DNA of 63,885 nt. Origin: a virus (taxonomy: Duplodnaviria; Heunggongvirae; Uroviricota; Caudoviricetes). A program made the position numbers. Positions 54,001-57,000 of this stretch are shown here, piece after piece. The DNA is taken from IMG/VR virus record IMGVR_UViG_2718218139_000008; one strand, written 5' to 3'. How positions within the stretch are numbered: the first letter of the stretch is position 1; each line of letters begins with the position of its first letter.

Positions 54001-57000
54001 GTGCGCCATCGGTTGTCTCTGCTGGCGCAGCAGGTGCCAGTTGTTCAGGCTGACGTGCGGATTGTAAACCAGAAAGCCCGGAAAAAACAAAACCCGCCGT
54101 AGCGGGTATGCTCAAACAATCTGAAAAATATTTCTTGGATTTGTAATAGGTCGATTGATGGAGAACAACTCACGAATTAAATCTTGACTCAAGCCAGTTT
54201 TCATAAGAATTCTTAACCAAGTTACATCATCCAGCATGTCAATCGCTTCGGACAGCATACTTGGTTCTTCGGGGCGCAAAAGTTCATCACCTGGTTCAAC
54301 TCTCGTGTACCCTCTAGAATTAAGATGCATATAGCCAGTTCTTGCCTGCTCTTGGGTCAATAGTCCTAATGCACTGGCTCGATAAATACACATTTTAAGG
54401 CTGATTTTCCATCTAAGCTTAAATTCAACCAGAGCACTCCAATCGAATTGCTTACCTCGTATTCGTGGAAACTCTTTAATGAAAGATAGCCTAGGAACCA
54501 ATAAGGCGCTAGAAAAGTGATCAGCTTGTGATTCCGTAAGTTTATCACCAGTAGTTATGCCCTCATGCATTACTAAATGCCCTAACTCATGACCTAAATC
54601 AGAGCGAAATCTACATATGCTTTTTTTACATTGTTCCTGATAATAACAGGCCTGTTATTGTGAACAGTGAATGCATCAACACGATCATCGACTCCCGTAA
54701 CATGCGCAACGATTACCCCCAAACTCTCCGCCAATTTCACCATTGATGATATAGGGCCAAGACCTAGATTCCATGCACGGCGACAATCTTCTGCCACTCG
54801 CTCAATATCATTCGGGGTAAGTAATTCAGTTCCTGGGTGCTCTGGTATGTTGACATCAGGGAATTCGATTTCACCTTCAACAGCAGAAATTATAATATTA
54901 AGAATCTCAGCCCTGGCCAAGACACTATTAGTCAGCGTTTGAGTCCTGGACTTCTTACTCCGAAAATGGCAAACATCGCTTTCCAGAGCATATTTTCGCT
55001 CAGTAAATAGAAAATCGGACTTAATCATAAGAGCTGAGGCTATTAACTCCAGGCATTGCTCTGATGGCCTAAATCCCTTCTCCAATTTGCTAACGAATTG
55101 CTTTGTTTTGCCAATTTTTTCGGCCAACTCTTCACATGAAAGCCCAACAGCCATTCTTGCTAGTTTGAGCTTATCGCCTCGATACTCAGTGAAGTTATTC
55201 ACCTGATGTTCCATTACTGCTCACATCCAAATTTTTATCCTTCGTACGCCGACGAAGAGACACCTTATTAATCTCCGCTTCGCCAGGGAGTGTGTTACCG
55301 TCAAGGGGCATAAGTGGCATTGATGCTGTAGATTGATGAGAAACCATACTAATCTGAGCGCCATAGGTATTAAACCCAACAAGAGCCACTTCCCAACGAG
55401 GCAGTGTGGACTCTAATTCACCATCTCCCTCTTCGGATAAAAATGGCTCCGCGATGACTCGCCATGTAATATCTTGCTCAGCCTCAACATCACCAAACAA
55501 TGAAAGCTGCTCATGCTCTACTTTATTTCGACGCAGGCGATGTTTCTTTTTGGGGTTATTAATGCAATCTTTGGTAAATTGTAGCGGAACTTTATTTAAA
55601 GCAACTACATAGTCCAACCCCTTGGAAATCATCTTAAGACCAGGAATTGCGCCTTCATTTTGAATAAGATGGTTTCTGACCCAATCATAAGCCCTTACAC
55701 CTTCAGACCAGTTGCTGTCTAATACGTGCTTATGATAGTACAACTGCTCAAGTACGTTAGCGATCTCCGCCAACAACTGGCGAACATTGCTTTCAGCAAG
55801 ATAAGGTTGAAATTCCCAACAAGGAGCTAACTGATTTTCATTCATTTCAAGTTTCGCTTTTTTTAGAATTCGCAAACCTTATACTTTCGCATTTTCCTGT
55901 TTTTGTCAACCAGACTAATGCAAAAACCCGCCGAAGCGGGTTAAGTGCGGGTGCGTTGAGGATGCCTGACACATCAGAGGTGGCGAGGGATTTCTCCCCC
56001 GCCTGGTCTCTTACTCCTCAGGTTCGTAAGCTGTGAAGACAGCGACCTCCGTCTGGCCGGTTCGGATTCGTACCTCGCAGAGGTCTTTCCTCGTTACCAG
56101 TGCCGTCACTATGACGGTTAAACAGATGACGATCAGGGCGATTAACATCGCCTTTTGCTGCTTCATAGCCTGCTTCTCCTTGCCTTTCGGCACGTAAGAG
56201 GCTAACCTACATGTGTCTAGCATGAAATTGGCCTCAGATTAATGTTAGGCGTCTTGCAGGACGCGTAATGTTAACTGGGGCTTTTCTCTGTCTGCCTTTT
56301 GGTGTTCATGCCTGAGGCAGATAGCCTCAAGCACCCGCAGCAATTCTACTTAACTCTCGCTTTACCGCAAACCGTTTTTACCCGATATGGGAATTCCCAT
56401 ATCGTAATGAATTCAGTTCCCTAGTCGATCCATCAAAAACACAACCAGGCAGTAAACGCCCACAACAGCAACAACAGCCAGCGCACCTTCCATTGCCAGT
56501 GAGATATCATCCGACATATTCCCTCCTTTGGTGTTAATCCCGGCGAACGTTTTTACCCCCACCGACAAATAACATATACTAAAAAAGCGATAGCCATAGC
56601 AACGCCTGTAATTGCAAATGCTTCAGGCCAGTTCATTGGCGCACCTCCTGCGGCGGTTCTGGTAGCGGCATCCAGTCGGTTACATTGCGGCTCTGTGTTT
56701 CGAAAAATTCATCACCATCACGGACTACATCAAAAAACTCACCGTCTCGATATTGCGCATAAAGAACGAATGCGCCATCACATAAAATAATTACGTGCTG
56801 ACCGTCATCCGGCATTCGCTCACTACAGCTTATCCAACCATCCAGAGTTACCGGATAGTTGGTTGACGTTTCCGAGATTTCCCGAAAATTATTGGTTGAC
56901 GAACCCTTCTTTTCCCGAAAGTTTCCAGCCTGAAGCATGGCGGCGCTGTCTGGCGGGGCAGCATATAGCGGCACGTATATTTCCGGTTCCTTATCAGCAC

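Follow-up and report, generated by a model that had tools for sequence, protein, structure and literature searches.

A RosmerTA-type gene pair in the nin region of a lambda-like prophage: a probable cargo cassette, a private frameshift and a candidate clamp-binding motif

A small group of minus-strand open reading frames (ORFs) in the IMG/VR virus record IMGVR_UViG_2718218139_000008 (a stretch of 63,885 nucleotides (nt), hereafter the window, to whose positions all coordinates refer) raises the question of what a gene unit carried by one of two prophages, and lacking from the other, encodes, and whether it is still intact. The group belongs to the nin region of one of them, a lambda-like prophage (prophage B; the other one being prophage A), in which three ORFs (ORF 1 at 55195-55875, of 226 amino acids (aa) if a TTG start is used; ORF 2 at 54594-55214, of 206 aa; ORF 3 at 54112-54570, of 152 aa) are flanked by hok (ORF 56011-56223) and a DUF968 gene (52680-53855). 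A preliminary description of the locus had read it as two genes with a 20-nt overlap, the second of them broken by a 1-nt frameshift just before a HELGH motif. Both statements stand: ORFs 1 and 2 share 20 nt (55195-55214), and ORFs 2 and 3 constitute a single gene split by one missing base, eight codons ahead of HELGH, the deletion being located in a homopolymer at 54621-54627. The profile matches given below lead us to call the two genes rmrT (putative toxin/effector) and rmrA (putative antitoxin).

The first gene, rmrT (55195..55845, minus strand), has a frame that is open back to the TTG at 55875, but its start is almost certainly the conserved ATG at 55845, since its RefSeq relatives are 651-nt genes, the match to its PHROGs family begins at residue 11, and all of its homologues begin there; its product would hence have 216 aa, and the length of 226 aa given in the preliminary description has to be corrected accordingly. 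The second gene, rmrA, consists of a 5' part (54594..55214, minus strand; the 206-aa ORF, whose final seven codons are out of frame), which encodes an XRE helix-turn-helix (HTH) domain (HTH_3, residues 16-62), a linker and the beginning of the peptidase domain, and of a 3' part (54112..54620, minus strand, in the -1 frame with respect to the 5' part), which encodes HELGH (54577-54591) and the C-terminal domain, and within which the 152-aa ORF opens at an ATG downstream of the motif. Restoring one base yields a protein of 367 aa, in which HELGH occupies residues 209-213. With Pfam, HTH_3 was detected in the 5' part of the window gene and Peptidase_M78 in its 3' part fell below threshold, whereas an intact RmrA relative passed the thresholds for both domains.

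The identity of the pair rests primarily on its profile matches. PADLOC recognised the 216-aa protein as RmrT (model PDLC03929, E=1.7e-24) and both halves of the second gene as RmrA (model PDLC03943; E=4.9e-52 over positions 2-188 of the 370-position profile, and E=1.2e-37 over positions 205-343), while PHROGs assigned RmrT to phrog_5786 (unknown function, E=8e-83) and RmrA to phrog_2439 (labelled 'transcriptional regulator'). No match to RmrT was found in Pfam or NCBIfam; for RmrA the closest NCBIfam model is named 'repressor/antitoxin', and the NCBIfam spr1629 model matches both halves weakly (50 and 70 bits against a cut-off of 335). The earlier statement that the upstream protein has no recognisable domain is thereby upheld for Pfam and NCBIfam, and fails for PADLOC and PHROGs; similarly, the proposal that it is a candidate novel effector holds as regards its being the putative effector of the module, and not as regards novelty, as it falls into the catalogued RmrT family PDLC03929. 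The two models also occur as a pair (7.5e-92 and 2.8e-204) on one E. coli P2-like prophage locus. The window RmrT scores 85 bits on PDLC03929, in comparison to 304 bits for the core members of E. coli P2 prophages, which marks it, by sequence, as a diverged branch of this family.

The Rosmer system was defined by Millman et al. (2022) as a Zn-peptidase antitoxin together with a toxin of unknown function, for which a construct deleted for rmrA could not be transformed, and resistance to phage was shown for the E. coli OLC-716 and the Kita Rosmer systems (whose toxins are unrelated to the window RmrT). The locus described here has a predicted Zn-peptidase antitoxin with an N-terminal HTH, profile matches for both proteins, and an adjacent, co-oriented and conserved pair of genes, and we assign it on this ground to the already catalogued RosmerTA family of toxin-antitoxin (TA) anti-phage systems. 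The view that an XRE HTH fused to a HEXXH peptidase typically forms the antitoxin-type part of a toxin or anti-phage module is borne out by the Rosmer match in PADLOC and by the conserved pairing (see below). As a separate observation, the core PDLC03929/PDLC03943 members are situated in a hotspot of P2-like prophages, with the gene for the replication endonuclease on one side and that for the portal protein on the other (e.g. positions 1008-2737 of locus L184 from E. coli XYEH3783; likewise L185 and L183).

The boundaries of the unit can be delineated from its flanks. Two terminator-like hairpins, one after hok (55925..55942, minus strand; hairpin and T run) and the other after the stop codon of rmrA (54092..54107, minus strand), mark its upstream and downstream edges, and between them there are only two genes, rmrT and rmrA. 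Homology to prophage A ends at ~55939, just past the hok terminator, and picks up again at ~54065. The two edge hairpins are near-identical (ACCCGCT[T/A]CGGCGGG), and at both ends they are followed by TCTGGTT[G/T]ACAA; this near-duplication (54040-54125 and 55900-55960) looks as if the junction had been duplicated upon insertion. At the equivalent site of prophage A (26006-26595, between hok and a conserved 90-aa gene) there is, in place of rmrTA, an ORF for a 114-aa protein with a signal peptide (26127-26471), in agreement with the earlier remark that prophage A differs at this position. Judged from the two sequences, the slot between hok and the ~90-aa gene is a site of cargo exchange, holding rmrTA in one prophage and the 114-aa ORF in the other. 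A putative promoter for rmrTA may be read at 55878..55909 (minus strand; TTGACA at 55909-55904 and TATAAG at 55883-55878, with a spacer of 20 nt). Taken as a whole, we consider it likely that 54092-55942 represents a self-contained cargo cassette (a 'moron') that occupies a variable site within the nin region of the lambda-like prophage B, and that it encodes a RosmerTA-type toxin-antitoxin/anti-phage module.

The cassette was counted in 231 of 5,426 complete E. coli genomes, i.e. in ~4% of them (236 genomes reached a query coverage of at least 80%), and is thus common in E. coli prophages. These copies are always annotated as 'hypothetical protein' and 'helix-turn-helix domain-containing protein', and are flanked in lambdoid prophages by hokD on one side and the DUF968/RusA/antiterminator genes on the other. 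Within the phage GenBank collection solely the flanks found matches, the cassette occurring in no deposited phage, and Rousset 2022, dealing with the P2/P4 hotspots, does not mention an rmrTA-type pair. A search with the RmrT profile against 1.84 billion representative proteins recovered 51 clusters (all of ~200 aa), the named members of which are 'hypothetical proteins' of Enterobacterales, Aeromonas, Vibrio, Photobacterium, Pseudomonas and Pseudovibrio; no streptococcal members were among them, and in GTDB just two species representatives were found. The preliminary description had suggested checking whether homologues of the upstream protein adjoin XRE-COG2856 genes, and they do: in all 55 fetched loci (drawn from E. 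coli, E. albertii, Xenorhabdus and IMG/VR contigs) an intact RmrA (~367 aa) is encoded directly downstream of RmrT, and relatives of RmrT with 19-28% identity (on a Pseudovibrio chromosome, in a transposon, and in a metagenome-assembled genome (MAG)) are followed by an overlapping ~370-aa HTH_3 + Peptidase_M78 gene. The relative from the transposon adjoins TniB/TniQ/Mu-transposase genes, and the same pairing is found in a plasmid-borne prophage region of Klebsiella. The two genes thus remain adjacent throughout the Gamma- and Alphaproteobacteria sampled, whether they are carried by prophages, by a transposon or by chromosomes.

By analogy with published relatives of the same architecture, free RmrT would be toxic, RmrA would neutralise it (and probably autoregulate the operon through its HTH), and in a lysogen rmrTA would guard against superinfecting phages. 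Against this expectation the state of rmrA in the window requires an explanation. The break maps to 54621..54627 (minus strand), where the coding strand holds seven adenines (A7; T7 on the plus strand) and intact relatives of the same allele hold eight (A8): the window reads GTA AAA AAA GCA and its closest relatives GTA AAA AAA AGC (the stretch around the run is GTAAAAAAAGC). When 80 nt centred on the run were used as a probe, 232 E. coli records were matched, none of them perfectly, and the A7 version of the window was found in no other locus (0 of 231 E. coli genomes and 0 of 55 loci); the change from A8 to A7 is private to the window sequence. A near-identical (99.98%) IMG/VR contig, UViG_2728369393_000008 (63,881 nt; loci L006, L062, L070 and L152 in the comparison), reads A8. 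Over the ~43 kb compared, the two differ at six positions, five of which are single-base changes in run length, comprising the A run of rmrA and an extra G or C in short runs (window versus contig) at 14563, 22996, 23052 and 34734, these other sites being intergenic or adjoining a tRNA gene; the sixth is a synonymous substitution in rmrA (54271). At the five sites other than the A run, the version of the window is common to independent sequences, while that of the IMG/VR contig is singular and looks like a draft-assembly error. The notion of a generally error-prone window was consequently rejected (agreement with independent sequences at 5 of 5 sites), and the window is the cleaner of the two sequences, because it shares its version with the independent ones; it is singular solely at the A run of rmrA.

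The history and the possible consequences of the run may be outlined as follows. The usual reading in relatives is GTT AAA AAA AGC (34 loci), and the GTA of this lineage, a synonymous change from GTT, lengthened the run from A7 to A8 and thereby made it more prone to slippage. The frameshift takes the peptidase motif out of the main translation product of rmrA. It is one of two things, a homopolymer error left in the sequence or a mutation that arose recently by slippage. In the frame of the window, the A7 run forms the slippery heptamer A_AAA_AAA, and on account of this site the frameshift may be leaky: a -1 ribosomal slip would give the exact wild-type RmrA of 367 aa, so that even a real mutation would have a milder effect. 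Slippage of RNA polymerase on such A runs would equally regenerate the wild-type protein. Broken copies of rmrA also occur elsewhere, as in a distant metagenome member of the family (L059, position 4074) a nonsense change (TTA to TGA) divides the gene, leaving an HTH protein of 160 aa and a peptidase ORF of 205 aa, while the same locus is intact in a MAG (L060); L059 constitutes a second broken antitoxin beside an intact toxin.

How RmrT might act was approached through its predicted structure and its conserved residues. The AF2 model improved from a pLDDT (per-residue confidence score) of 64 with 16 sequences to a mean of 79.6 (pTM, the confidence score for the overall fold, 0.72) with 57 sequences, and opens with a pair of helices at the N-terminus, which are followed by a sheet of three strands, a helix (108-117), a second sheet and a low-confidence tail from residue ~176, the end of which is disordered (pLDDT <50 from residue 204). 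The check by profile and structure search that had been proposed for the upstream protein gave the PADLOC and PHROGs matches of RmrT and otherwise remained empty: in addition to Pfam and NCBIfam, Foldseek searches with the models against PDB (two runs) and BFVD returned nothing at E<1e-3, and the family profile found nothing among PDB sequences. The low-confidence tail (~176-216; 55195-55320) retains across the family the pattern LP-x-EAEI ... LRRR-x-K, which might serve as a tag for degradation, as a site where the RmrA peptidase cleaves, or as a segment to which the antitoxin binds.

The most conspicuous conserved feature of RmrT with a candidate function is Q113-L-S-L-F117 (codons at 55495..55509, minus strand), a candidate motif for binding the beta sliding clamp (DnaN), the consensus for such motifs being QL(S/D)LF. 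QLSLF, in the context E-x-x-QLSLF, is invariant in 16 close homologues, and Q113 belongs to a set of just four residues whose conservation reaches at least 90% among 57 family sequences (the others being D43, G49 and W128); E110, R129 and G157 are likewise near-invariant in an alignment of 30 sequences. Of 58 members, 52 have a clamp-type motif at the equivalent position (mean 5.8 and maximum 12 in shuffled sequences), and 41 fit a stricter pattern (0.6 in shuffles). Its variants in the family include QLSLPL, QMSLL, QLNLAF, QLTLF, QLSLDLF and QLALLF. QLSLPL and QMSLL are the clamp motifs of Hda and MutS, and the occurrence of both five- and six-residue forms in the RmrT family resembles what is seen in known clamp-binding motifs. 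In the proposed mechanism, RmrT would occupy the DnaN pocket through QLSLF and block replication, in the manner of RipA and SocB (see below). We put forward as a tentative proposal, drawn from the motif and from this analogy, that RmrT may owe its toxicity to docking onto the hydrophobic pocket of the clamp; the wider idea that occupation of the pocket through QL(S/D)LF would be the killing mode of the whole RmrT family, and perhaps also of several Rosmer toxin families unrelated to it, is slightly less probable. In the collection of papers searched, none tied a clamp-binding motif such as QLSLF to toxins of Rosmer systems, of prophages or of defence.

Several points weigh against the picture of a functional RosmerTA-type cassette with a clamp-directed toxin. 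At the level of the module, the toxicity and the defence role of this RmrT subfamily are argued by analogy; homology to the experimentally verified RmrT of E. coli OLC-716 was considered and rejected (BLASTP E=9.4; hhalign probability 0.2%); a promoter scan upstream of rmrT called no convincing sigma-70 promoter; and a genuine frameshift that does not leak would leave the intact toxin with no antitoxin, contradicting a simple TA model. At the level of the motif, six of the 58 members are devoid of any clamp-type sequence, the PADLOC-core RmrT subfamily has DQLFAPE in place of QLSLF, and the model places QLSLF not in a free tail but in the last part of helix 108-117, where its confidence is lower. 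Moreover, Rosmer toxin mechanisms are known to vary, the toxin of the Gordonia phage Kita depolarising membranes. The helical placement of QLSLF, the divergent sequence of the PADLOC-core subfamily and the Kita toxin, which forms membrane pores, lend weight to a different route of toxicity (such as an unrecognised enzyme activity or membrane damage), under which QLSLF would be a structural element of the helix, and the further near-invariant residues (D43, G49, W128, E110, R129 and G157) could be adduced for it as well; we regard its chances as close to balanced, since the model of RmrT consists of helices and beta-sheets with no long hydrophobic stretch, neither PDB nor BFVD offered an enzyme fold, and the tolerance of pentamer and hexamer forms, while typical of clamp motifs, would be unusual in a core helix.

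The frameshift allows a comparable range of readings. That it is real, rmrA being a pseudogene of a decaying or deregulated module in which the 206-aa HTH fragment may still repress or the toxin is otherwise tolerated, is quite possible, although we lean towards the opposite side. The window agrees with independent sequences at every other differing site, the GTA codon raised the risk of slippage, the seven IS600-type insertion sequence (IS) copies of the window (see below) suggest a genome under IS expansion, and the nonsense split in L059 sets a precedent. On the other hand, the A7 allele is absent from the 231 genomes, the 55 loci and the 99.98%-identical contig, long homopolymers are the classical seat of residual assembly errors, the rmrT product is fully intact (100% protein identity to that of the relatives L005 and L006), and removal of the antitoxin alone failed in three related systems (that of Millman et al., the Vibrio one and the pneumococcal one). 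The decay or deregulation of the module, as surmised in the preliminary description, is accordingly not established, with the frameshift in none of the relatives compared and antitoxin loss reported as lethal in related systems. A tolerated frameshift would also be explained if the roles were reversed, i.e. if the HTH-peptidase fusion were the harmful partner and the upstream protein restrained it, as for PD-lambda-2, the Xre-peptidase of which was toxic alone and was rescued by the upstream component; this is very unlikely, given that in PD-lambda-2 the first gene is HigB-like and three components are present, that no PADLOC match to PD-lambda-2 exists in the window, and that the upstream gene is the toxin in the Vmi480, RipA and E101_02645 systems. 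We hold it to be similarly improbable that the pair is an ImmR/ImmA-type prophage switch (a repressor with an anti-repressor protease) involved neither in TA nor in defence. The combination of HTH and M78 is a hallmark of such switches, and the PHROGs and NCBIfam labels ('transcriptional regulator', 'repressor/antitoxin') would suit one, but the location of the cassette, enclosed by terminator-like hairpins, is the nin region and not the immunity region, the pair is also found outside phages (beside transposon genes and on the Pseudovibrio chromosome), and its domains are fused, with a conserved ~200-aa protein, and no phage regulator target, as the constant partner.

The locus itself is of low interest, as it is common in E. 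coli prophages and would be labelled as Rosmer by standard defence-finder tools; its possible value resides in a cheaply testable, canonical clamp motif in a toxin family without a known mechanism. Were the clamp hypothesis true, one mechanism would join the proteobacterial prophage Rosmer systems, the pneumococcal RipA (DnaN), the ClpXP dependence of the E101 pair and SocB; the DnaN-targeting result obtained for RipA would reach from Streptococcus to the prophages of Enterobacterales, and clamp binding would explain why such modules render ClpXP essential. Furthermore, we argue that single-base breaks in homopolymers should be given no gene-decay reading without read-level evidence, most of all in antitoxin genes, where loss is expected to be lethal.

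Two further features of the window deserve mention. It harbours seven 100%-identical copies of a ~1.27-kb element, for which the matching E. coli records annotate an IS3-family IS600 transposase (6354-7418, 11205-12470, 17340-18404, 41696-42761, 45534-46598, 58780-59845 and 62885-63885); seven such copies in 64 kb suggest a Shigella-like, IS-expanded host, and this would account for the lack of an exact match to the window among complete E. coli genomes. The segment 22850-23200 recurs with 100% identity in many complete genomes of E. coli, where a tRNA-Arg gene and the gene of a TerB-family protein are annotated at this place, so that the 153-codon open frame at 22865-23323 (minus strand) is probably not a gene.

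Among the described systems that combine an HTH with a zinc peptidase, two resemble rmrTA in part only. ImmR/ImmA of ICEBs1, suggested as a model for the regulation of RmrA, shares the HTH and the M78-type zinc metalloprotease, but there the two are separate proteins that control excision of the element and have no toxin partner, whereas RmrA is a fusion (367 aa) encoded in the nin region; we did not assign the pair to this group, owing to its fused domains and nin-region site. PD-lambda-2 (Vassallo 2022) is made up of three components (HigB-like, Xre-peptidase and P4-antitoxin-like), and membership in it was likewise rejected, the cassette having two genes and neither a HigB nor a PD-lambda-2 model match in PADLOC or Pfam.

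RosmerTA is matched far more closely, in the order of the genes (toxin first, with an overlap), in the ~200-aa toxin devoid of known domains, in the ~370-aa XRE HTH-ImmA/M78 HEXXH antitoxin and in the carriage by mobile elements, the differences being that the window subfamily is diverged and that its rmrA carries a frameshift. The OLC-716 RmrT corresponds to another PADLOC model (PDLC03935, as judged by a 93%-identical relative, P0131). In its family (alignment A4, columns ~150-165), the close members keep a QLKLDL-type segment and the more distant ones NLDLF; both are clamp-motif-like and may reflect either chance or a theme shared by Rosmer toxins.

Two published toxins come from pairs built like that of the window. 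Vmi480 (VMD_06480; 198 aa, from MGIVmi1 of Vibrio mimicus) is lethal, and Vmi470 (HTH + Zn-peptidase, ~362 aa) is its antidote; E101_02645/E101_02644, a pair of rmrTA architecture in an E. coli prophage, makes clpP essential, and the substitution T46S in E101_02645 suppresses this effect. E101_02645 is said to be 33% identical to Vmi480. Both systems share with rmrTA a ~198-aa domainless toxin gene that comes first and is followed by an HTH + Zn-peptidase gene. The PADLOC-core E. coli relatives of RmrT (197-199 aa) have Thr46, within DNNYT46R, at the residue changed in the E101 suppressor, and may represent the family of the published E101_02645 toxin; the window RmrT (216 aa) differs in having a serine (S47) at the aligned position. 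From length, context and Thr46, compared by description, we infer that Vmi480 and E101_02645 would belong to the RmrT family.

With regard to the proposed mechanism, the nearest parallels are two toxins directed at the clamp. SocB of Caulobacter crescentus binds the DnaN cleft through a clamp-binding motif, stalls replication and is removed by ClpXP, a likeness that concerns the mechanism alone, as its antitoxin SocA is not an HTH-peptidase. SocA is a ClpXP adaptor. RipA/RipB (Spr1630/Spr1629) of S. pneumoniae is a Rosmer-type pair whose toxin RipA targets the hydrophobic pocket of DnaN, as concluded from two-hybrid data and dnaN suppressors, and whose antitoxin requires ClpX (PLoS Genet 2025, PMC12795458). 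The study of RipA reports no clamp-binding motif in it (PMC12795458). The two systems agree in having a toxin gene followed by an XRE-HTH/ImmA-peptidase antitoxin gene, and the DnaN pocket, which binds QL(S/D)LF, is the very target that we propose, tentatively, for RmrT.

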